From: Pararhodobacter sp.
Lineage (GTDB): Bacteria; Pseudomonadota; Alphaproteobacteria; Rhodobacterales; Rhodobacteraceae
Length of the DNA stretch: 64,000 nt
Reading direction: 5' to 3'
NCBI GenBank assembly: GCA_020832665.1
Contig: JAFIEG010000013.1
Span: 414-64,413 of the forward strand
Position numbers and translations under genes: made by a program. Positions 2-13,982 of this stretch are shown piece by piece. How positions within the stretch are numbered: the stretch's first letter is position 1; each line of letters opens with the position of its first letter. The notes beneath the pieces were generated by a model. That model had not been told where the DNA came from. It searched no databases and worked only from the letters and a program-made list of their open reading frames with translations.

Positions 2-904
2 GCGGTGCAGACCGCCATGCGGCTGTGGCGCGGCGAGGGCGTGCAGGGCTTTGTCGGCATGCATGACAGCGCCGTGCGCGCCGCGCTCAACGGCCAGTTT
101 CGCGGCCAGGTGCCCTATATCTATTCCGGGGTCTATGAGGGCGGAGAATGCGCGCCGGGCAACTGGCTGACCGCTGAAACCCCGGCCCAGCAGCTGGCCC
201 CCACCATCCCCTGGCTGGCCGAGAACCACGGCGCCAGCCAATGGTATCTGATCGGCAATGATTACAACTGGCCGCGCGATACCAACGACGCCGCCCGCCC
301 CATCATCGCCGAAGCCGGCGGCGAGATCGTGGGCGAAGAATATGTCCCGCTGGGCACCGCCGATTACGACGCCTCGCTGCAGCGCATCCGCGCCTCGGGG
401 GCCGATGCGGTGCTGGTCACGCTGGTGGGCGGCGACTCGGTAGCCTTCAATATCGGCTTCGGCGCCTTCGGGCTTGATGAGCAGGCGCTGCGGCTGGGCA
501 CGCTGATCGAGGAAAACACGCTGGCCGGTATCGGCGCAAGCGGGGCGAACCGGCTCTTTGCATCGATGGGCTTCTTCGCCAGCATCGAAACCGATTCCGC
601 GCAGGCTTTCGCCGCGCGCCACGCCGAAACCTTCGGCGCCGAGGCCGCGCAGCTCAACGGCATGGGCCAGTCGGTCTATGACGGGCTGATGCTGCTGGCG
701 GCGCTGGGCAACGCCGCGGGCTCGATGGATGCCGACGCCATCACCGCCGCCGCCGACGGCACCGGCTTCACCTCGCCGCGCGGCGAGGCGGTGCTCGATG
801 GCAACCATGTCGCGCAGACCATCTATCTGGCCGAAGGCACCGGCGGCGCCTTCAGCGTGGTCGCCAGCTTCGACAATGTCGCTCATGGCGTGACCTGCGA
901 GTAA
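2..904 (+). CDS. ABC transporter substrate-binding protein, type-I periplasmic-binding fold (LivK/AmiC-like); 5' end outside the window
   Basis: ORF 5..904 is open to the window edge, so it is 5' partial. The translation (..YLIGNDYNWPRD.., ..ADAVLVTLVGGDS..) resembles Leu/Ile/Val- or amide-binding proteins. Its TAA overlaps the ATG of the next permease gene (TAATG, 902-906). Confidence 0.8.
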   Translation, partial: AVQTAMRLWRGEGVQGFVGMHDSAVRAALNGQFRGQVPYIYSGVYEGGECAPGNWLTAETPAQQLAPTIPWLAENHGASQWYLIGNDYNWPRDTNDAARPIIAEAGGEIVGEEYVPLGTADYDASLQRIRASGADAVLVTLVGGDSVAFNIGFGAFGLDEQALRLGTLIEENTLAGIGASGANRLFASMGFFASIETDSAQAFAARHAETFGAEAAQLNGMGQSVYDGLMLLAALGNAAGSMDADAITAAADGTGFTSPRGEAVLDGNHVAQTIYLAEGTGGAFSVVASFDNVAHGVTCE

Positions 905-1755
905 TGGAAGCGGCGCTGCTGATCGGCCTCAACGCCGCCTGGCAGATCGCGGCCCTGGCGCTTCTGGCGCTGGGGCTTGCGATCGTGTTCGGCCTGCTGC
1001 GCATCCTCAACATGGCGCATGGCGAATTCGTCATGCTGGGCGCCTATGCCCATGTGCTGACCGCGCAGGCCGGGCTGCCGCCCTGGATGGCGCTGCCGGT
1101 CTGCATCGGCTTCGTGGGGCTGGCGGCGCTGGCGGTGGAAAGGCTGGTGGTGCGCCACCTCTATGACCGGATGTTCGACAGCCTGCTGGCCACCTGGGCG
1201 CTGTCGATCCTGATGCGCGAGGCGGTCGAACTGGTCTGGGGCCGCGCCTATCGCAATGTGCCGCTGCCGGTGGAAGGCGTCACCCAGCTGGGCCCGGTGG
1301 GTTATCCCAGTTACCGGCTGATGGTGATCGCGCTGATCGTTATTGTTTTCTTCGCGCTCTGGCGCTGGTACCGGCGCAGCCTGACCGGGGTGCGCCTGCG
1401 CGCGATGGTGTCGAACCCGGCGCTGGCACGCGCCTCGGGCATCAATACCGCGCGGCTGTCGGCAATGGCCTTTGTCACCGGCTGCGTGAGTGCCGGGCTT
1501 GCCGGACTGATCCTGGCGCCGGTGCTGGCGGTCGAGCCGAATATGGGGCTCGACGCGCTGATCCGGTCGTTCTTCGCGCTGGTCGTGGGCGGGCTGGGCA
1601 CGCTTGAAGGGCTGGGCATCGGCGTGGCCGTTGTCGGCGGGCTGCAGGCGGGGCTGAGCGCGGCCTTCAGCCAGACGGCGGGCTATCTGGGCGTTCTGAT
1701 CCTGGCCATCCTGTTCCTGTGGAGGCGCCCCGATGGGCTCTATCGTCGCCGTTAA
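904..1755 (+). CDS. Branched-chain amino acid/amide ABC transporter permease (LivH-like)
   Basis: 283-aa polytopic hydrophobic protein in an operon with the binding protein and ATPases. The start overlaps the upstream stop. Confidence 0.85.
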   Translation: MEAALLIGLNAAWQIAALALLALGLAIVFGLLRILNMAHGEFVMLGAYAHVLTAQAGLPPWMALPVCIGFVGLAALAVERLVVRHLYDRMFDSLLATWALSILMREAVELVWGRAYRNVPLPVEGVTQLGPVGYPSYRLMVIALIVIVFFALWRWYRRSLTGVRLRAMVSNPALARASGINTARLSAMAFVTGCVSAGLAGLILAPVLAVEPNMGLDALIRSFFALVVGGLGTLEGLGIGVAVVGGLQAGLSAAFSQTAGYLGVLILAILFLWRRPDGLYRRR

Positions 1756-3481
1756 CGCGGCCCTGGCGCTGGCGCTTCTCGCGGTGCCGGCGCTGTGGGG
1801 CGATTTCATGGCCTGGCAGATCGGGCTTTACCTGCTTTACGGCGTTGCCGCGCAGGGCGTGGGGCTGGCCTGGGGGCGCGGGGGCTTTCTGCCGCTGGGC
1901 AATGCGGTGTTCTTCGGTGTGGCGGCTTACGCCGCCGCGATGGTGCTCAACGCCACCGGCGGCGCGCTCTTGCCCAACCTGCTGGCGATGCTGGCCATCG
2001 CCGGCGTGCTGGCGGCGCTGGCCTGGGGGCTGGCGGCGCTGGTCTTTCACGGGCGCAGCGATTCAGGGCCCTTCTTCTCGCTCATCACGCTGGCGCTGGT
2101 GCTGATCGTGGCGCAACTGGCCGAAACCAACCCGTCCATCACCGGCGGCTTCAACGGCTATGCCGGCTTTGCACCGCTGGCCGGGCTGGACCCTTACGGC
2201 AACCTTTACTACGCCATCGTCGCGCTGGTGGTGGCGGTGAGCCTGTCGCTCATGGCGCTCGATCGCCTGCCCGCCGGACTGGTGCTGCGCGCGCTGGTGG
2301 CGCAGGAAGGGCGGTTGCAGCTTCTGGGCTTCGCCACCAACCGCGTCAAGGCCTGGGCCTTCGCCGGCGCGGCCTTCATCACCGCGCTCGCGGGCACGCT
2401 TTACGCCAGCCATCAGGGCATCGTCACACCGCAGGCCACGGGCTTCGTGCTTTCGGCCGAGTTGGTGATCTGGGCGGCGGTGGGTGGGCGTCTGCACCCG
2501 CTGGGGGCGCTTTTCGGCGCCGTGGCGATCGGGCTTCTGAGCGCCGAGCTGCGCGATATCCTGCCCTGGTGGGAGGTGGTGGTGGCCATGATCTTCCTGC
2601 TGGTGGTGCTGCTGGCGCCCGGCGGCGCGGCCGAGTTGGTTGCGCGTGGCGCCCGCGCCCTGGGCTGGCAGCGGCGCATTCCCCAACCCGCCCCCTGCCC
2701 CGCGCCGTCCTCGCGCGCCGCCGGCGCCACCGGTGCGCTGCGGCTCGAAGACGTGCAATTGCATGCCGGCGCCGTGCATATCCTTCGCGGTCTGGATGTA
2801 AGCTGCCCCGAAAGCGGCATCCTTTGCGTGATCGGCCCCAATGGCGCGGGCAAGACAACCATGCTCAAGGCGATTACCGGCGCCATGCGCCTGCAATCCG
2901 GGCGCATCCTGCTGGGCGAGCGCGATATCACGAATGCCCCGATCCATGCCGCGCTCGATGCCGGGATCGGCCGCAAGATGCAGATCCCCACCGTGTTTGG
3001 CGGGCTTAGCCTGACCGAGAACCTGCAACTGGCGTCGCTGGCCGGGCGCGCGCGCGCGGGCGATTTCCTGCACCCGGCCACGCTGGGCTGGCAGTCGCCT
3101 GCGCTGGCGCGCCTCATGGCGCATCCGGCCGTGCCGCTGGCCGGGCTGAGTGCGCGCGATGCCGGCTCCTTGCCGCAGGGCCACCGGCAGTTGCTGGAAC
3201 TGGGGCTGACCATTGCCGCCGAGCCGCAAATCCTGCTGCTCGACGAGCCCACCGCCGGCATGTCGCCCGAGGAAACCGCGCTGATGGTGGAGCTGATCCG
3301 CGATTATCAGGCCCAGACCGGCGCCTTCGTGCTGGTCATCGAGCATGACATGGCGCTGGTGGCAGCGCTCGATGCGCGCGTTCTGGTGCTGCATCAGGGG
3401 CGCAATCTGGCCGTGGGCCGGCTCGACGAGGTTCGCGCCAATCCGGCCGTTGCCGCCGTCTATGCGGGGGGCGAGAAATGA
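1733..3481 (+). CDS. Fused LivM-like permease / LivG-like ABC ATPase
   Basis: 582 aa in one frame. The N-terminal ~330 aa are hydrophobic and permease-like. The C-terminal half has Walker A GPNGAGKTT and Walker B LLLDEPTAGM. Confidence 0.85.
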   Translation: MGSIVAVNAALALALLAVPALWGDFMAWQIGLYLLYGVAAQGVGLAWGRGGFLPLGNAVFFGVAAYAAAMVLNATGGALLPNLLAMLAIAGVLAALAWGLAALVFHGRSDSGPFFSLITLALVLIVAQLAETNPSITGGFNGYAGFAPLAGLDPYGNLYYAIVALVVAVSLSLMALDRLPAGLVLRALVAQEGRLQLLGFATNRVKAWAFAGAAFITALAGTLYASHQGIVTPQATGFVLSAELVIWAAVGGRLHPLGALFGAVAIGLLSAELRDILPWWEVVVAMIFLLVVLLAPGGAAELVARGARALGWQRRIPQPAPCPAPSSRAAGATGALRLEDVQLHAGAVHILRGLDVSCPESGILCVIGPNGAGKTTMLKAITGAMRLQSGRILLGERDITNAPIHAALDAGIGRKMQIPTVFGGLSLTENLQLASLAGRARAGDFLHPATLGWQSPALARLMAHPAVPLAGLSARDAGSLPQGHRQLLELGLTIAAEPQILLLDEPTAGMSPEETALMVELIRDYQAQTGAFVLVIEHDMALVAALDARVLVLHQGRNLAVGRLDEVRANPAVAAVYAGGEK

Positions 3482-4161
3482 CCAAAATGTTGCTTCGGCT
3501 CGAAGATGTCTCTGGCGGATATGGCGATACGCTGGTGCATCGCGGGCTCTCGCTGGAGCTGGCGGCGGGGCAGGTGCTGGGCGTGATCGGGCGCAACGGC
3601 ACCGGCAAGACCACGCTGGCGCAGCTGATCGGCGGCGAGCTTTCGCTGGCGGCGGGGCGCATGGTGCTAGGCGGGCGCGACATCTCCAGCCTGCCGCCAT
3701 GGGAGCGCGCCAAGGCGGGCATCGCGGTGATGCCACAAACCGGGATGGTGTTTGACGCACTCACCGTCGCCGAAAACCTGGCGCTGCTGGGACCGGTAAC
3801 GCTGGGCAAGCTGGGCGAGCGCTTTCCGCATGTCGTTGATCGCCTGAGCCAGCAGGCGGGCTCGATGTCGGGCGGCGAGCGCAAGATTCTGGGCTTCGTG
3901 CGTACCATGCTCAGCCCGGCCCGGCTGGTGGTGCTGGATGAGCCCTCCGAAGGTGTCCAGGCCGAGAATATCGCGCACATGCAGGACACGATCGCCGAAG
4001 CGCGCGCCGCCGGTCTTGCCTGCATCCTGCTGGAGCAGAACATCTCGATGGTCGAGGCGCTGGCCGACAGCGTGATCGCGCTGGACAGCAACGGTATCGT
4101 CTATAAGGCGCAGGGCGCGCAGATCGACCGCAAGGCGATGCTGGCTGCCATCAGCATCTGA
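3478..4161 (+). CDS. ABC transporter ATP-binding protein (LivF-like)
   Basis: Walker A GRNGTGKTT, signature SGGERK, Walker B VVLDEPSEG. ATGA start/stop overlap with the preceding gene. Confidence 0.85.
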   Translation: MTKMLLRLEDVSGGYGDTLVHRGLSLELAAGQVLGVIGRNGTGKTTLAQLIGGELSLAAGRMVLGGRDISSLPPWERAKAGIAVMPQTGMVFDALTVAENLALLGPVTLGKLGERFPHVVDRLSQQAGSMSGGERKILGFVRTMLSPARLVVLDEPSEGVQAENIAHMQDTIAEARAAGLACILLEQNISMVEALADSVIALDSNGIVYKAQGAQIDRKAMLAAISI

Positions 4162-4210
4162 CCGGCTGGCTGAGATTTCGGCTTCGGTTTGAGCACTGGC
4201 ACCGACCGCT

Positions 4211-4275
4211 GTCGTGCCGAAGGCATGCCCTGGCGCAGTCGTGCCGAAGGCACGCCTTTGGCGTGACGCCGGGCG
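4211..4275. repeat. REP-like hairpin repeat block (family A): two GTCGTGCC-GAA-GGCA(C/T)GCC units plus CTTTGGCGTGACGCCGGGC
   Basis: CGTGCC/GGCACG is a 6-bp stem around a GAA loop. The 19-nt segment 4256-4274 is identical, inverted, to 45291-45309. The adjacent hairpin unit is 15/18 identical to 45310-45327. Confidence 0.75.
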
Positions 4276-4292
4276 CGATGACCCAGTGTTGT

Positions 4293-4340
4293 CACATGTC
4301 CGAGGAACGAAAAACCGGTTCCCACTTCTTCGCGGCACGC
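4293..4340 (-). repeat. 48-nt intergenic repeat (family C) with AACCGGTT core
   Basis: The reverse complement matches 14018-14065 at 40 of 48 positions by hand alignment. Confidence 0.65.
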
Positions 4341-4379
4341 CAGAGTGCACCCAGCTCAGCCGTCCTTCCGCCCGGTCTG

Positions 4380-4625
4380 TTGGTAAAGCGCATTGCCTGG
4401 ATTTGCGGCGAGCCCGTCGCCCGCCCATGATGCGATCCGTGCTGAGTTAAGCGCGTTGCATGGCCACGCTCGGCGCCCTGCGCCACGGACGTTTATGCGC
4501 GAGATTCGTCGAAGAACTGCGCGCGTGTGGCAGCCCGGGAAGGTCATCACCATCGCAGTCGCCCGAAAACGGCTCAGCGTGGCGAACGCCGTCTTGCGGG
4601 ACCGGTTTCCCTTTCCAAGCAATTC
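4380..4625 (+). mobile_element. Degenerate relic of an IS110-family transposase 3' end (frameshifted, no intact ORF)
   Basis: Two adjacent frames read ..LCARFVEELRACGSPG.. and ..QPGKVITIAVARKRLSVANAVLRDRFPF... Together they resemble the conserved IS110 C-terminus (..FYxRLxxxGKPxKVAxxAVxRKLLxxxNAxLRD..PW). There is no start codon or catalytic N-terminal domain. Confidence 0.4.
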
Positions 4626-4652
4626 TCCGTAACACAGCTGCCACCCCGCGCG

Positions 4653-4742
4653 CCCCGTCACGTCGAAGGCGTGCTTCCAGCACGACCACGCTACAAGCGT
4701 GCTTTCAGCACGACAATGCCACAAGCGTGCTTCCAGCACGAC
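4653..4742. repeat. Family A variant: leader CCCCGTCACGTCGAAG followed by 3 tandem 28-bp units, each with a GCGTGCT-TYC-AGCACGAC hairpin
   Basis: Units start at 4669, 4697 and 4725 (28-bp period). The stem is CGTGCT/AGCACG, a compensated C:G to T:A change relative to CGTGCC/GGCACG elsewhere. The leader is near-identical to 24751-24766. Confidence 0.75.
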
Positions 4743-5026
4743 GCAGGCGCTGCCCTTGCGGGCGCACGGGCGGGCGTGAGAAGCCGGGTTACCGGAACTA
4801 ATCAGACTTGATATCAGCCGGCCTGCTGGTCGCGCGATGGCGCTTCTATCCCGACGTTCACTTTGCATGGCTACAGAGCCAGTGGGGGGCAAGGCGAATG
4901 CGCCGCCACGCATCGATCGGTATTCATGCGTGCGCGTGGATATACCCGTTCAGCGCAGGGAGAGTGAGTCTCACCGCCAGCATGGCGAGGTGTGATACCG
5001 CAGACATCGCGGGCACGAATGCGCCT

Positions 5027-6106
5027 TCAGGCCTGCCCGATGTCCAGCGTCACGCCTTGCACCGGCGTTGCTGGCCGGCACGGGGCATTGCGCACGGTTT
5101 CGTCGGTTCCATCGGAATGGAGCATGGTCATCCGGCTGCGCCCGGCATGCTTGGACAGGTAGAGCGCCTTGTCGGCCCGCGCGAGAAGCGCATCGCGCCG
5201 GTCGCGACAGTCGGGGCAGTCGGGGGGCACCTCGGTCTGGTGCAGAACCGCGCCGATCGAGGCCGATATCCGGCATTCGTGCCCGTCGAAGGGGATCGGA
5301 GTTTCCAGCCGCGCCAGCAGCGCCCGCCCGATGCGTCGAATCGGTTCGAAATTGCGAATCGTCGGCAGCAGGATGATGAATTCGTCCCCTCCGACCCGAG
5401 CCACCAGATCGTTGCCGCGCACCGACTGGCGCAGCGCAGCCGCAACGGCAACGAGCACATGATCGCCGGCTGCATGGCCCAGCGTGTCGTTGACCTGCTT
5501 GAAGCGATCTAGATCGACATGCATCAGCCCGAAGGGGCTGCCGGCGGCGAGAAGTTGCTGCATCTGGCGTTCCAGCGCACGGCGATTGCCCAGCCCGGTC
5601 AGCGTGTCGGTCAGCGCCTGTGCCTCGGCCTGCTTCTTGGCGCCGAGCAGTCGTTGGTTCATCCGGTCCAGCTCGGCCATGACCGCGGCTTTCGCCTCGG
5701 CCAGATACAGCAGTTCGATGGCCAGGTCGGTAGGGGCGAAATCAGTATCGCTGAGAGCGTGTTCGCGCACCGCGTCGCGCACGCCATAGCCGAAAGACAG
5801 GTTCAGCAGAGCGCCGGTGGCGCCGGCCAGCGGCACCGCCACCCCCTTGAACCCGGTACGGGGTGGGCTGGCGAAGTTGAGCCTTATCCGCGTTGCGCGC
5901 ACCAGATCCTCGGCGTGCGAGATGCGGCGCGGGCGGCGCAGCTCGAAAACCTGCTCGAGCGGCGTGCCGGGGGCGACCGGCCCGGCAAGCTTGCGCAAGG
6001 TCGGCCCCATGCTGCGGATCCGGCATTGCCGGTCGATCCACAGGAACATGGGCATCATTTCACCAAGCGCGGCAGGGTCCAGCGCGATTGAGGCAGGCTT
6101 CGTCAC
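5027..6106 (-). CDS. Diguanylate cyclase with sGC-like HNOBA (PAS-like) N-terminal domain and coiled coil (H-NOX-associated cyclase)
   Basis: N-terminus ..MFLWIDRQCRIRSMGPTLRKL..VFELRRPR.. resembles the HNOBA region of soluble guanylate cyclase. A coiled coil follows (..AELDRMNQRLLGAKKQAEAQ..). The GGDEF domain is intact with an I-site (RGNDLVARVGGDEF). The GTG start overlaps the upstream stop (GTGA). Confidence 0.85.
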   Translation of the reverse strand: MTKPASIALDPAALGEMMPMFLWIDRQCRIRSMGPTLRKLAGPVAPGTPLEQVFELRRPRRISHAEDLVRATRIRLNFASPPRTGFKGVAVPLAGATGALLNLSFGYGVRDAVREHALSDTDFAPTDLAIELLYLAEAKAAVMAELDRMNQRLLGAKKQAEAQALTDTLTGLGNRRALERQMQQLLAAGSPFGLMHVDLDRFKQVNDTLGHAAGDHVLVAVAAALRQSVRGNDLVARVGGDEFIILLPTIRNFEPIRRIGRALLARLETPIPFDGHECRISASIGAVLHQTEVPPDCPDCRDRRDALLARADKALYLSKHAGRSRMTMLHSDGTDETVRNAPCRPATPVQGVTLDIGQA

Positions 6107-6792
6107 GGGCTCTCCGCTCCCACCAGTTCGAACCGACGGCCGCTGTGAAAGGTAGGATCATGCACCTCGATTGCGATGATCTCGTCCTGCACCGGCTTCG
6201 ATCGCCTGCCGTTTGATCGGCGCGCGCCGTTTTCCGCCACGGTCCGGTTGCCGGGCCGGTTTTCAGGATGCGCGCCGGGCTGCGCCCCCTTGTGTTCGAG
6301 CACGGCGAGCGCCCCGTAATCATCGGCCATCGCCCTGAGAATGCCGAGCATCACATGGCCAAATCCCGGCGGGCATGCCCGGCAGGTCAGCAGGAACCGG
6401 CCCTGGCCCCGATCTTCGGTAACGATTTCCGGCAGCACGAGTTCGGGCACGGCAAGCAGGGTCCGGCCCTGAAGATCCTCGAGCGAGTAGAGAAAATCGG
6501 TGAAGCTGACCCCGCCAAATCGCAGGAGCCGGCGCAGCGCGGCCAGCCGGGGATTGCCGACCAGATAGGTGCCCAGATCCTCAAGCAGCGAACAACGCGT
6601 GCGATCCAGCAGCCGCGCGGCAACCGCGAGCACGGCATCGGTGATCCGGTCGTCATATTGCTGCATGGCCTCGAACCCGTCGGGACCCAGATCCTGCGCA
6701 ACACCGGATTGCGCGCTCACACGCTGCCAGACCGCTTCGCCGAAGCTGTCGGTGATGAAGCTCTGGATCGCCTTGTTGATCAGCCCGTGCAT
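6103..6792 (-). CDS. H-NOX (HNOB)-like sensor domain protein with ~60-aa C-terminal extension
   Basis: N-terminus MHGLINKAIQSFITDSFGEAVWQRV.. matches the characteristic H-NOX start (MYG(F/L)(V/I)N.A...). It is coupled to the downstream cyclase. See the finding on missing heme ligands. Confidence 0.8.
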   Translation of the reverse strand: MHGLINKAIQSFITDSFGEAVWQRVSAQSGVAQDLGPDGFEAMQQYDDRITDAVLAVAARLLDRTRCSLLEDLGTYLVGNPRLAALRRLLRFGGVSFTDFLYSLEDLQGRTLLAVPELVLPEIVTEDRGQGRFLLTCRACPPGFGHVMLGILRAMADDYGALAVLEHKGAQPGAHPENRPGNRTVAENGARRSNGRRSKPVQDEIIAIEVHDPTFHSGRRFELVGAESP

Positions 6793-6856
6793 CTCGCACC
6801 CCGGATAGTTGCCCTGCAGATGCTAGGCAGGCCAGGTTAAGAAATGGCAAACGGCA

Positions 6857-7567
6857 TCACGCCGGCACAATGCCCAGCAGGGCCGGCAGGTGGCCGATAT
6901 CGGGGCGCAGCGCATCGGCATGGGGTGCCAGGTCGGCGCTTTCCGCCACGCCGGTCAGAACCGCCAGCGTGCGCATGCCGGCGGCGCGACCGGCATCGAG
7001 GTCATGGCGGCTGTCGCCAACCATGAGCACTGCCTCGGGCGGCAGACCGCAATGGCGGGCGAAGGCCAGCGGCATGCCCGGCCCGGGCTTTGCCCCGTAG
7101 CCCGAATCGAAGCCGGCGACGAAGTCGAACATCTCCATCAGATCGCCGAGATGCTGGCGGGCGACCGCTTCGTGGTCATTGGTCGCCACACCCAGCCGGT
7201 AGCCGGCCGCAGCAAGGCCTTGCAGCAGCGGCCGCAGCGGTACCGCCTCGACCAGCGGCACCGCGGCGGCGGCAGCCGAGATGCGCGCCTCGATCACCTC
7301 GAGCGGCAGGCCGGGCGGGGGCAGATAGGGCGCAACAAGCGCCGCCGCCTCGCGCCCGGTGCCGGCAATCACCTTGCTGTGCGGCAGGAAACGACACCTT
7401 TCCTCGTCGAAACCGATGGCCTGCGCCAGTGCCGACCGGCGCGCGGCGTCGGACCCGCCGATCTGGCGGATCATCATCATTGCCCAGGAACTCCACGTCG
7501 CCTGGAAATCGTAAAGGGTGCCATCCTTGTCGAACAGTATTGCCCGGATATCGTGCATTCGGCTCAT
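6857..7567 (-). CDS. HAD-superfamily hydrolase (phosphoglycolate phosphatase-like, subfamily IA)
   Basis: Motif I ILFDKDGTLYD, motif III/IV ..MVGDSRHDLDAG... ATGA overlap with the upstream DUF3572 gene. Confidence 0.8.
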   Translation of the reverse strand: MSRMHDIRAILFDKDGTLYDFQATWSSWAMMMIRQIGGSDAARRSALAQAIGFDEERCRFLPHSKVIAGTGREAAALVAPYLPPPGLPLEVIEARISAAAAAVPLVEAVPLRPLLQGLAAAGYRLGVATNDHEAVARQHLGDLMEMFDFVAGFDSGYGAKPGPGMPLAFARHCGLPPEAVLMVGDSRHDLDAGRAAGMRTLAVLTGVAESADLAPHADALRPDIGHLPALLGIVPA

Positions 7568-7848
7568 GTCCAGTGCATCTCGGCGCCGCCAGGCAGCGCG
7601 GTGCGCGCCTCGGCGGGGCGTTCGGGCGGCACGCCAAGATCGGCGCAGCAGGCCAGAAGCTGATCTTCACTGGCCATCAGGAAATCAATGACAGCGAGAA
7701 GAAAACCGGGCTGTGCCAACGCCTTGCGCATATCTGCGGGTGCCGAGCCGGTTGCTGCCATGAAGGCACCCAGGCGCGCGGAATCGGTGCTCAGCCATTC
7801 CAGAACGCGGGCTGCGAACAATTCAGCCTCGGGGCGTGATAAAGCCAT
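7564..7848 (-). CDS. Small conserved protein (DUF3572-like)
   Basis: 94-aa ORF with good coding character. It is the first gene of the strand-minus unit divergent from pleD. Family name is from memory of the motif (..FMAATG....MR......FL.AV.DFL..). Confidence 0.6.
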   Translation of the reverse strand: MALSRPEAELFAARVLEWLSTDSARLGAFMAATGSAPADMRKALAQPGFLLAVIDFLMASEDQLLACCADLGVPPERPAEARTALPGGAEMHWT

Positions 7849-7998
7849 GTTTGCGTTGCCGTGCGTTTCTGTTTCATGATCGGTTAATCTCGGGAAAGAA
7901 ATCGTTAACCAATCGGGGTTATCAAGGGATTAAGCGCTAGGCCGCAAGCATTCAACCGGGAAGGCGAGAACGCGGCACATAACGAGGTAATATTTGCC

Positions 7999-9441
7999 AT
8001 GTCGGGCAGGATTCTGGTCGTCGATGATCTCGCCACCAATCGGGCGTTGCTCAAGGTCAAGCTTCGGGCGGCCTTTCACGAATGCCTTCAGGCCGCCGAC
8101 GGCCCCTCGGCGCTGGAGATCGCGCGCCGTGAACGCCCGGCGCTGATCCTGCTCGATGTCATGTTGCCAGGCATGTCGGGGATCGAGGTCTGCCGCCGGC
8201 TGCGCAACGATCCGCAGACCCGCGACATTCCCGTGGTCATGATCACCGCCTCGGGCGATCGCGAAAGGCGGTTGCAGGCACTGGCGGCCGGGGCAGACGA
8301 CTTTCTGACCAAGCCGCTCAACGATGTCATCCTGCGGGCGCGTATCCGCAGCCTGCTGCGCGCCCGCGAGGCCGAGTATGAGCTGCGACTTCGCGCCGAC
8401 ACCTTTCAGGCGCTGGGCTTTGGCGACATGCCGGCCGAGTTCGAGCCGCCGGGGCGGATTGGGCTGATCGCGGGCGATACGGCCAGGGCAGCGGCCTGGC
8501 GCGCAATGCTGGCGCCGCATCTGAAGGACAGCATCGAGGTGCTGAGCCCGGCGGCGGCGCTGTCCGGTAGCCACGGTGGCAGCGTGCCGGACCTTTACAT
8601 GGTGGCCGCCGACATGGGGGCGCATGGCTCGGGGCTCAGGCTGGTGGCCGATCTGCGCTCGCGCCTGCAAAGCCGGCACAGCGCCATCGTGCTCGTGCTC
8701 GACGATCCGGCATGCGAGACGGCCGCGAACGCGCTCGACATGGGGGCAAGCGATCTGCTGACTCTGCCTTTCGATGCGCAGGAAACCGCCCTCAGGCTGG
8801 GCTTGCAGATCAGGCGCAAGCGCCGCGCCGATCGCCTGCGCGAGGCGCTGCAGAACGGGTTGGAAATGGCGCTGATCGACCCGCTGACCGGGCTTCACAA
8901 CCGCCGCTACGCGCTTTCGCGGCTCAAGCGCATTGCCGCGCGCAGCCAGGAAAACGCAAGCGTTTATGCGGTCATGCTGCTCGATCTCGACCGTTTCAAG
9001 GCCATCAACGACATGCACGGCCACGCCGCCGGCGATGCCGTTCTGCAAGCCGTTGCCCGGCGGCTGCGCGCCTGCCTGCGACCGGCCGATCTTCTGGCGC
9101 GCATCGGCGGCGAGGAATTTCTGGTGGCGATCCCCGATTGCTCGCTGGAAATGGCGCGCGGCGTGGCCGAGCGGCTGCGCAATGTCGTCGGCTGCGAGCC
9201 GGTCACCCTGCCCGGGGGCGATAGCACGGTGTCGGTGACGATTTCGGCGGGGCTGGCCATGGGGGCGGTTCGCCCGATGGGCGAAGTCGTGCCGGCACCG
9301 GTGCGGGGGGCATTTTGCCAGCTCGATACCGAGCTTCCCGGCGCATCGGCGCAGGCGGTTCTTGCCAGCGCCGATGCCGCGCTGCTGGCAGCAAAGACCG
9401 AGGGGCGCAATCAGGTCAATGTTTCCGCCAGCGCTGCCTGA
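7999..9441 (+). CDS. pleD: Response regulator diguanylate cyclase, REC-REC-GGDEF (PleD-like)
   Basis: REC1 has ..ILLDVMLPGMSG.. and ..KPL... A second degenerate receiver follows. The GGEEF active site has an RxxD I-site (RPADLLARIGGEEF). Confidence 0.85.
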   Translation: MSGRILVVDDLATNRALLKVKLRAAFHECLQAADGPSALEIARRERPALILLDVMLPGMSGIEVCRRLRNDPQTRDIPVVMITASGDRERRLQALAAGADDFLTKPLNDVILRARIRSLLRAREAEYELRLRADTFQALGFGDMPAEFEPPGRIGLIAGDTARAAAWRAMLAPHLKDSIEVLSPAAALSGSHGGSVPDLYMVAADMGAHGSGLRLVADLRSRLQSRHSAIVLVLDDPACETAANALDMGASDLLTLPFDAQETALRLGLQIRRKRRADRLREALQNGLEMALIDPLTGLHNRRYALSRLKRIAARSQENASVYAVMLLDLDRFKAINDMHGHAAGDAVLQAVARRLRACLRPADLLARIGGEEFLVAIPDCSLEMARGVAERLRNVVGCEPVTLPGGDSTVSVTISAGLAMGAVRPMGEVVPAPVRGAFCQLDTELPGASAQAVLASADAALLAAKTEGRNQVNVSASAA

Positions 9442-13097: not shown

Positions 13098-13982
13098 TCA
13101 GGGCCACTTCGCCATCGGCGGCAGGCTCATCAGCACCGCATCGGCATTGTGCCCGGTGGCCAGGCCGAATTTCGTGCCCCGGTCATAGACCAGGTTATAT
13201 TCGGCATAGAGCCCGCGATGGGTGAGCTGCACCTCCTTCTCGGCCTCGCTCCAGCCTTGCTCGCGCCGGCGCTCGGCCAGCGGCTGGAAGGCCGGCAGGA
13301 AAGCCTCGCCCACGGCTCGGGTGAAGGCGAAATCGGCCTCCCAGTCGCCCGAGTTGAGATCGTCGTAGAAGATGCCGCCGACGCCGCGCGCCCGGCCGCG
13401 ATGGGGGATGAAGAAATACTCGTCCGCCCAGGCCCGGAAGCGCGTATAGTAGTCGCCGGCATGTGCGTCGCAGGCCTTTTTCAACTCGGCGTGGAAATGC
13501 GCCGTGTCCTCGGCGTATTCGATGCAGGGGTTGAGATCGGCGCCGCCGCCGAACCACCAGGCATGCGGGGTCCAGAACATGCGGGTGTTCATGTGCACCG
13601 CCGGGCAATGCGGGTTTTGCATATGCGCCACCAGGCTGATGCCCGAGGCCCAGAAGCGCGGGTCGTCTTCCATGCCGGGCACGCCGCGTGCGGCCATCGC
13701 GGCCTGCGCCTGCGCGCCCAGCTCGCCAAAGACGGTCGAGACATTCACGCCCACCTTTTCGAACACCCGCCCGCCGCGCATGACGCTCATCAGCCCGCCG
13801 CCGCCGCTGCCGCCCTCGCGCTCGGTCGGCGTTACCTCGAAGCGCCCCGGCGGCATGTCGCAAAGCGGGCCGGCGAGATGGCCGTCTTCGAGCATCTCGA
13901 AGGCGGTGACGATACGATCGCGCAGGCTGCGAAACCAGGTGCTTGCGCGTTGCTTGCGGGCGTCGAAACCGGTGTCGTTCAT
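13098..13982 (-). CDS. hemF: Oxygen-dependent coproporphyrinogen III oxidase
   Basis: 294 aa. ..GGGGLMSVMRGGRVFEKVGVNVS.., ..WFGGGADLNP.., ..HRGLYAEYNLVYDRGTKFGL.. are HemF signatures. Confidence 0.9.
   Translation of the reverse strand: MNDTGFDARKQRASTWFRSLRDRIVTAFEMLEDGHLAGPLCDMPPGRFEVTPTEREGGSGGGGLMSVMRGGRVFEKVGVNVSTVFGELGAQAQAAMAARGVPGMEDDPRFWASGISLVAHMQNPHCPAVHMNTRMFWTPHAWWFGGGADLNPCIEYAEDTAHFHAELKKACDAHAGDYYTRFRAWADEYFFIPHRGRARGVGGIFYDDLNSGDWEADFAFTRAVGEAFLPAFQPLAERRREQGWSEAEKEVQLTHRGLYAEYNLVYDRGTKFGLATGHNADAVLMSLPPMAKWP

Follow-up and report, generated by a model that had tools for sequence, protein, structure and literature searches.

Introduction

The closest described relative of the locus considered here, a two-gene unit encoding an H-NOX-like sensor and a predicted diguanylate cyclase within a 64,000-nucleotide stretch of Pararhodobacter sp. 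DNA (contig JAFIEG010000013.1; the whole stretch is hereafter called the window), is the hnoX-dgcA pair of Paracoccus denitrificans. In that bacterium hnoX (Pden_3719) overlaps dgcA (Pden_3720), and the axial histidine is missing from the H-NOX protein, as it is from the Rhodobacter sphaeroides counterpart (Kumar & Spiro, 2017; PMC5588039). Biofilm formation by P. denitrificans is decreased in an hnoX mutant and increased in dgc mutants (PMC5588039), and deletion of hnoX has a strong phenotype (PMC5588039, PMC11536421). A 2022 review recognized a fifth, very large H-NOX cluster (‘Group 5’) around the Paracoccus protein, in which the histidine is kept in fewer than 10% of members, its place being taken mostly by proline, and in which cysteine is not conserved (PMC8738867). 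In 2024, the recombinant P. denitrificans protein (Pd H-NOX) was found to be folded and colourless, with iron and zinc undetectable; it was heme-free even after addition of aminolevulinate, bound hemin only non-specifically, and no P. denitrificans phenotype responded to exogenous nitric oxide (NO) (PMC11536421).

Several better-known systems resemble the window unit in part. Legionella pneumophila (Hnox1-Lpg1057), Shewanella woodyi (H-NOX with a diguanylate cyclase/phosphodiesterase, H-NOX-DGC/PDE) and Dinoroseobacter shibae (H-NOX-Dgc1) each carry a stand-alone H-NOX gene adjoining a gene for a cyclic di-GMP (c-di-GMP) enzyme, as in the window, and these sensors are thought to control the enzyme through direct binding. 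By their descriptions all three bind NO as heme proteins, whereas the window sensor has lost both heme ligand and propionate clamp. In Legionella and Shewanella, moreover, the partner is a GGDEF-EAL protein, in contrast to the GGDEF partner in the window. Animal soluble guanylate cyclase (sGC; alpha1/beta1) has the same module order of H-NOX, H-NOXA/PAS, coiled coil and nucleotide cyclase, and the H-NOX domain of its alpha subunit is heme-less like the window sensor. The window modules, unlike those of sGC, are split over two genes (and fused in a few relatives), no heme-bearing subunit is found in the unit, and its output domain is a GGDEF domain (c-di-GMP) as opposed to a class III cyclase (cyclic GMP). 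The signal-transduction histidine kinase (STHK) system of Nostoc punctiforme includes a bacterial H-NOXA domain (2p04/2p08) that adjoins an H-NOX gene and is the best profile match of the N-terminal domain of the window cyclase, but it differs in having a histidine kinase output and a canonical heme H-NOX neighbour. Finally, the heme-free zinc/cysteine redox form of Vibrio cholerae H-NOX (Vc H-NOX) sets a precedent for heme-independent signalling through an H-NOX fold (PMC7108781), although that protein keeps the heme ligand and a conserved cysteine zinc site; Group 5 has neither, and Pd H-NOX is zinc-free.

An earlier note on the window, made from the sequence alone, regarded the loss of heme-binding residues from its sensor as unexpected. 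We find instead that this loss is a trait of a large group that has already been described (PMC5588039, PMC8738867, PMC11536421), to which the window unit belongs by its sequence. With moderate confidence, we favour the view that a heme-less H-NOX-like sensor restrains the cyclase DgcA in response to a cue other than canonical heme.

Results and discussion

Orthology to the Paracoccus hnoX-dgcA pair

Reading the window bears out both the two open reading frames and the overlap between them that the earlier note had described (Table 1): the TGA of hnoX, at 6103-6105, overlaps the GTG of dgcA, at 6104-6106, giving a 4-nucleotide overlap. The 229-residue hnoX product starts MHGLINKAIQSF. Comparison of the dgcA product with the Paracoccus protein shows a conserved N-terminus from near residue 9; because no alternative start codon lies 5′ of this conserved region, the GTG start, and hence translational coupling of the two genes, is likely. 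A database protein identical to the window cyclase, from a Pararhodobacter metagenome-assembled genome, bears the name ‘diguanylate cyclase [Pararhodobacter sp.]’, and the sensor is present on metagenome contigs with the same neighbouring genes. NCBIfam holds no model that names the sensor.

Using P. denitrificans sequences taken from a PLSDB record, BLASTP aligned the window sensor with Pd H-NOX at 41% identity (E 7e-43) and residues 9-328 of the window cyclase with Pd DgcA at 38% identity (E 2e-49). The two pairs, both from the family Paracoccaceae, have in common the two-gene layout, the same 4-nucleotide overlap, the absence of a proximal histidine and a Y-x-S-x-R motif from the sensor, and a partner composed of an N-terminal domain, a helix and a GGDEF domain with an inhibitory (I) site. 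They differ at the histidine site, where the window protein has glutamine and Pd H-NOX has proline (SLRELPGRV); in a C-x-x-C-like pair found only in the window protein, Pd H-NOX having cysteine at neither the 137 nor the 140 site; in an insertion of 28 residues that lengthens the loop ahead of the final strand in the window protein; and in their upstream neighbours (HAD, DUF3572 and pleD-like genes in the window vs a ComEC-like gene in P. denitrificans). Judged by sequence, the window pair is the Pararhodobacter orthologue of P. denitrificans hnoX-dgcA. Since it is orthologous to that pair and matches the Group 5 description (kinship to Pd H-NOX, a replaced histidine, a residue C140 that is not conserved, and adjacency to dgcA), it represents a new copy of a known group, and the survey counts given below reproduce the published account. 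Signalling units of this kind are very widespread in the Rhodobacterales; the window pair is one further example and adds no new principle. Its orthologue in Paracoccus shows clear phenotypes in biofilm formation and metabolism.

Table 1. Positions of the hnoX-dgcA unit and its features in the window
Feature	Position	Strand	Description	Basis
hnoX-like gene	6103..6792	(-)	229-aa H-NOX-fold protein, His-less ‘Group 5’ type	Pfam, AlphaFold2/Foldseek, BLASTP
Gln108 codon	6469..6471	(-)	Site of the heme-ligating proximal His	Alignment to Nostoc (Ns) His105 and Thermoanaerobacter (Tt) His102
C137-R-A-C-P141	6370..6384	(-)	Replaces the Y-x-S-x-R heme-propionate triad	phmmer and MAFFT
Loop insertion, residues ~173-200	6193..6276	(-)	Arg/Gly/Asn-rich, lineage-specific; between the last two sheet strands	Model and alignment
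C-terminal strand and motif E204..I208..D212-P213..G218-R219-x-F221-x-L223	6124..6183	(-)	Last H-NOX strand	Model, Foldseek, conservation
GTGA overlap	6103..6106	(-)	hnoX stop/dgcA GTG start; likely translational coupling	Sequence reading
dgcA-like gene	5027..6106	(-)	359-aa predicted diguanylate cyclase, H-NOXA(PAS)/S-helix/GGDEF	BLASTP to Pd DgcA, AlphaFold2
H-NOXA/HNOBA PAS-like domain, residues ~9-116	5759..6082	(-)		Orthologue profile, Pfam, model
Long linker helix, residues 128-164	5615..5725	(-)	Signalling-helix or coiled-coil candidate	AlphaFold2, Foldseek
GGDEF catalytic domain, residues 164-325	5132..5617	(-)		Pfam, PDB matches
R230-G-N-D233	5408..5419	(-)	Inhibitory (I) site	Sequence reading and conservation
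G239-G-D-E-F243	5378..5392	(-)	Active-site motif	Sequence reading and conservation

Fold and heme-binding residues of the sensor

Sensor residues 2-160 match Pfam HNOB (PF07700; E 7.5e-19), and a phmmer search of PDB sequences gave an alignment to Nostoc H-NOX over the protein's entire length (E 6e-13). An AlphaFold2 (AF2) model, built from 68 sequences and having a mean predicted local distance difference test score (pLDDT) of 85.7, retrieved Nostoc H-NOX (2o09) as its top PDB match in Foldseek, with an E-value of 3e-14, a template-modelling (TM) score of 0.83 on the target and an alignment of 211 columns. The H-NOX domains of sGC beta1 ranked next, and sGC alpha1 chains were also among the structural matches, at ranks 48-49. 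These matches assign the protein to the H-NOX fold, which comprises seven helices and a four-stranded sheet. The H-NOX/HNOB identity proposed in the earlier note from the protein's N-terminus is thus upheld by both profile and structural comparison.

In the phmmer alignment, Ns His105 (NLDNLHARVGL) falls opposite Gln108 of the sensor (SLEDLQGRTLL), and Ns Y134-x-S136-x-R138 opposite C137-R-A139-C-P141; a MAFFT alignment with the Nostoc and Thermoanaerobacter proteins and 150 family representatives brought the same columns together. Both substitutions, which had been read by eye, are confirmed by profile, MAFFT and structural alignments, and neither a proximal histidine on helix F nor a Y-x-S-x-R triad is placed in the sensor by any of them.

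Conservation across the family was read from three sets: the 120 closest homologues; 81 species-level sequences from 80 species-representative Rhodobacterales genomes; and 150 representatives, these being the best 150 of the 714 that an exhaustive cluster search (50% identity) returned at E <=0.001. One residue next to the heme is kept, sensor Pro121 corresponding to Tt Pro115 and being conserved in 81/81 species-level sequences and 143/150 representatives.

The last ~60 residues of the sensor had been described as an atypical tail, a description that holds for one part and fails for the other. Residues ~173-200 do form a lineage-specific loop, modelled with a pLDDT of 52-60 between strands 162-172 and 202-211; more than 90% of close relatives have a gap here, and just two of the 121 sequences, one of them the window protein, carry a loop of this length. 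Residues 202-223, by contrast, are conserved, and strand 202-211 of the model is the ordinary final strand of the H-NOX sheet. The idea that the tail constitutes an extra domain was consequently rejected, since the pattern of gaps, the pLDDT values and the Foldseek alignment describe a disordered loop followed by the normal last strand.

Family-wide loss of the heme-binding residues

Position 108 was next compared across the sets. Close relatives (the 120 closest homologues together with the window protein) carry Q88/R20/P12/G1, with histidine in 0/120; the species-level sequences carry P56/Q12/R4/H4/E3/N1 (His 4/81); and among the 150 representatives proline (89), histidine (17/150) and arginine (10) are found. 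The Y-x-S-x-R motif occurs in 0/150 representatives. Among the 118 nearest relatives (55-65% identity) of one histidine-bearing member, the position is P60/H37/Q18, and histidine-bearing members are scattered across a neighbour-joining tree; Pd H-NOX lies inside the family in both the alignment and the tree. Because the residue switches between proline, histidine and glutamine, and because the members with histidine are scattered, the position appears to be only weakly constrained. The survey of Gln108 and of the CRAC sequence that the earlier note had proposed thus sharpens the question, in that the heme residues are lost family-wide and the former histidine position is under little constraint. 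The family itself is large: thousands of protein clusters belong to it, and genomes that represent species contain at least 524 stretches that match.

A minority of members retains the proximal histidine within a recurrent L-H-D-R-A-R-L-A-V-P motif, still without Y-x-S-x-R. Examples are loci L052, L060, L068 and L079, whose H-NOX genes lie at about 6001-6570 or 1580-2083.

Since Group 5 has lost both the proximal histidine and the Y-x-S-x-R clamp, the window sensor most likely carries no heme. One of the alternatives that the earlier note had put forward, a heme-free protein, is accordingly plausible and matches the published data on Pd H-NOX, which contains no heme, iron or zinc (PMC11536421).

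Several observations nonetheless weigh against our favoured reading, and most of them would suit a sensor that binds heme non-canonically, through His2, His146 or Cys137, and whose signal is still NO. His2 is near-invariant (121/121 close relatives, 76/81 species-level sequences and 100/150 representatives), a fact for which the favoured reading offers no explanation, and His146 is common. In P. denitrificans, NO derived from nitrite reduction stimulated biofilm formation (PMC5588039). The D. shibae H-NOX, encoded beside dgc1, is reported in secondary sources to sense NO through heme and to inhibit Dgc1 (PMC8846402, PMC7232146); this protein (Dshi_2815) was not among the matches listed in a homologue search seeded with a histidine-bearing Maritimibacter member. 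The authors of the Pd H-NOX study also point out that Escherichia coli may be without a needed cofactor-insertion system, so that expression in this host could have missed an insertion step (PMC11536421). Finally, the link from H-NOX to DgcA in Paracoccus is drawn from genetics, because c-di-GMP could not be measured (PMC11536421). Against non-canonical heme binding, however, stand the failure of Pd H-NOX to acquire heme despite aminolevulinate, its non-specific interaction with hemin and the lack of any response to exogenous NO (PMC11536421), together with the absence of the propionate triad from 150/150 representatives and the alternation of Cys137 with valine and isoleucine. We therefore consider a heme-based NO sensor of this kind improbable.

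The cysteines that occupy the former triad had also been proposed to form a thiol-redox sensor, in which C137 and C140 would make a reversible disulfide or a metal site that reports oxidants, much as in heme-free Vc H-NOX, where heme-independent cysteine oxidation has a precedent (PMC7108781). The C137-x-x-C140 pair is indeed present in 73 of 121 aligned sequences (the window protein and its 120 closest relatives). Farther out, however, C137 occurs in 60/81 species-level relatives but C140 in only 9/81, P. denitrificans has a cysteine at neither site, Group 5 has no conserved cysteine (PMC8738867), and Pd H-NOX is without zinc (PMC11536421). The AF2 model places both cysteines on, or at the end of, a single β-strand (132-140), an arrangement in which the geometry for a disulfide would be poor because strand residues i and i+3 face opposite sides. 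By sequence, then, only a subclade carries the CxxC-like motif; a CxxC redox switch was rejected as a family-level mechanism, and the proposal is not borne out by the survey. As an account of the window sensor, a thiol switch strikes us as very improbable.

Conserved pocket-lining positions and candidate contact residues

Although the heme-binding residues are gone, the positions that line the pocket remain hydrophobic and conserved in the sensor family, and it is because of this retention that a small non-heme ligand is our leading guess for the input. More specifically, the Group 5 H-NOX fold, that of the window sensor included, may now serve as a receptor whose retained hydrophobic pocket accommodates a small molecule other than heme, with the near-invariant His2 as a possible contact; candidate ligands are metabolites and molecules that are lipid-like or act in quorum sensing; the pocket-facing Cys137, together with Cys140, might add a thiol input in the Pararhodobacter subclade. 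We offer this more detailed proposal tentatively, and would sooner bet against it than for it. Were it true, it would mean that a new class of ligand feeds c-di-GMP control across the Rhodobacterales. Knowing the ligand would explain how c-di-GMP levels are set in many alphaproteobacteria of sea and soil.

Conservation within the family is highest at His2, RRLLRFGG (residues 87-94) and ADDYGAL (residues 156-162), none of which is a canonical H-NOX feature. All three are candidates for ligand contact or for the interface with DgcA.

Domain architecture of the cyclase partner

The catalytic half of the partner is readily recognized. Its GGDEF domain matches Pfam PF00990 over profile positions 1-161/161 (E 3.4e-39), and diguanylate cyclases in the PDB match it down to E 2.5e-28. 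The RGND sequence stands five residues ahead of GGDEF, the spacing found in PleD, and in 75/75 dgcA orthologues neither the GGDEF motif nor R230 or D233 varies, so that the domain is predicted to be a catalytically competent diguanylate cyclase with an I-site.

The N-terminal region is more divergent. With the single partner sequence as query, the match to Pfam HNOBA (PF07701) is borderline (23.8 bits vs a cut-off of 23.4) and covers residues 9-63 only. A profile of partner residues 5-168 was therefore built from 72 orthologues and searched against PDB sequences. This profile matches the N. punctiforme STHK H-NOXA domain (2p04) over nearly the whole domain with an E-value of 1.3e-6, residues 206-279 of Manduca sGC beta1 (E 4e-6) and residues 282-360 of human sGC alpha1 (E 0.007); Pfam HNOBA is, in addition, found in 65 of the 72 orthologues. 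On this sequence evidence the partner begins with a genuine H-NOXA/HNOBA domain of PAS-like type, as the earlier note had suspected, and the survey thereby assigns what had been a ‘domain of unknown function’ to the H-NOXA/PAS type seen in sGC.

An AF2 model of the partner (pLDDT 91.3) shows a PAS-like α/β domain at residues ~11-116, a single helix at 128-164 and the GGDEF domain, consistent with the coiled coil followed by an intact GGDEF domain with an RxxD I-site that the earlier note had described. Whole-chain Foldseek comparison, over ~340 columns, returned PAS-helix-GGDEF proteins (5xgb, 4zmu and 8c05), among which are PA0861, Dcsbis and a LOV-activated cyclase. Because the H-NOXA/PAS domain, the long helix and the GGDEF domain stand in this order, the sGC-style domain logic that had been attributed to the two-gene unit is real.

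Conserved gene order and natural fusions

A dgcA orthologue lies immediately downstream of hnoX in 78 of 80 genome loci, at spacings of -21 to +201 nucleotides, and the other two loci are cut contigs. Furthermore, four representative clusters (P0135, P0173, P0199 and P0222) consist of single-chain HNOB-HNOBA-GGDEF proteins of 536-607 residues with linkers of 40-80 residues in all four; P0173 keeps the proximal histidine. The recurrence of P0135 and P0199 on several independent contigs, along with the linkers, argues against an artefact of gene calling. These single-chain proteins provide Rosetta-stone evidence that the H-NOX-like protein and DgcA act together, and they support direct coupling between the two.

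The same findings can be read in another way, namely that the H-NOX-like protein is a ligand-free regulatory subunit, comparable to the heme-less H-NOX domain of sGC alpha. It would then sense nothing by itself but act as a structural or allosteric partner, and its abundance or modification would set DgcA activity. Fusions and the stop/start overlap both point to a fixed stoichiometry, all heme-binding determinants have been lost, position 108 is weakly constrained, Pd H-NOX was obtained without a bound cofactor (PMC11536421), and the sGC alpha1 chains among the structural matches supply a heme-less precedent. A passive scaffold would hardly seem to need the strong conservation of the pocket lining, His2, RRLLRFGG and ADDYGAL that is seen in more than 150 clusters, however, and the strong phenotype of hnoX deletion (PMC5588039, PMC11536421) likewise speaks against such a role. 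We regard a ligand-free subunit as unlikely, if less so than a sensor built on non-canonical heme.

A model for control of DgcA

Taken together with the Paracoccus literature, these features suggest how a heme-less sensor might restrain DgcA. The H-NOX-like protein and DgcA would be made in a fixed ratio by way of the overlapping stop and start codons, and the former would dock directly on the PAS/helix module of a dimeric DgcA. Docking could shift the register of the helix or alter how the two GGDEF domains come together, with the net effect, going by Paracoccus genetics, probably being restraint of c-di-GMP synthesis; the RxxD I-site would add product feedback. The input would be a cue not routed through canonical heme, possibly the small ligand proposed above. 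That the sensor contains neither heme nor zinc, that biofilm formation is affected and that exogenous NO elicits no response enter this model from the P. denitrificans orthologue and would hold for the Pararhodobacter pair by analogy. The fold, the lost heme residues, the orthology, the synteny, the fusions, the H-NOXA homology and the intact catalytic motifs are taken from the window and its relatives themselves.

Genomic surroundings of the pair

A scan of 4100-8100 for promoters and terminators found nothing, and an Rfam scan of the whole window gave no match. Upstream of hnoX-dgcA lie genes for a HAD hydrolase (6857-7567 (-)) and a DUF3572 protein (7564-7848 (-)), followed by a divergent gene for a PleD-like REC-REC-GGDEF protein (7999-9441 (+)). 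In 47-58 of 80 Rhodobacterales loci this trio likewise lies upstream of the pair with its relative orientation unchanged, although other genes are often interposed; it was not found adjoining the P. denitrificans pair. On the other side, ~860 nucleotides (4162-5026) separate a livF-like ABC ATPase gene from the dgcA stop and contain a sole orphan open reading frame of 185 residues (4356-4913 (-)), which has no Pfam match in its public entry and which tblastn did not find in any of 81 related loci. The livF-like gene belongs to a liv-type cluster (5-4161), within which a 582-residue open reading frame (1733-3481 (+)) encodes a BPD_transp_2 branched-chain amino-acid permease fused to an ABC ATPase. 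A gene for an oxygen-dependent coproporphyrinogen III oxidase (hemF-like; 13098-13982 (-)) lies ~6 kb away from hnoX, a proximity to the gene of a probably heme-less sensor that is most likely coincidental.

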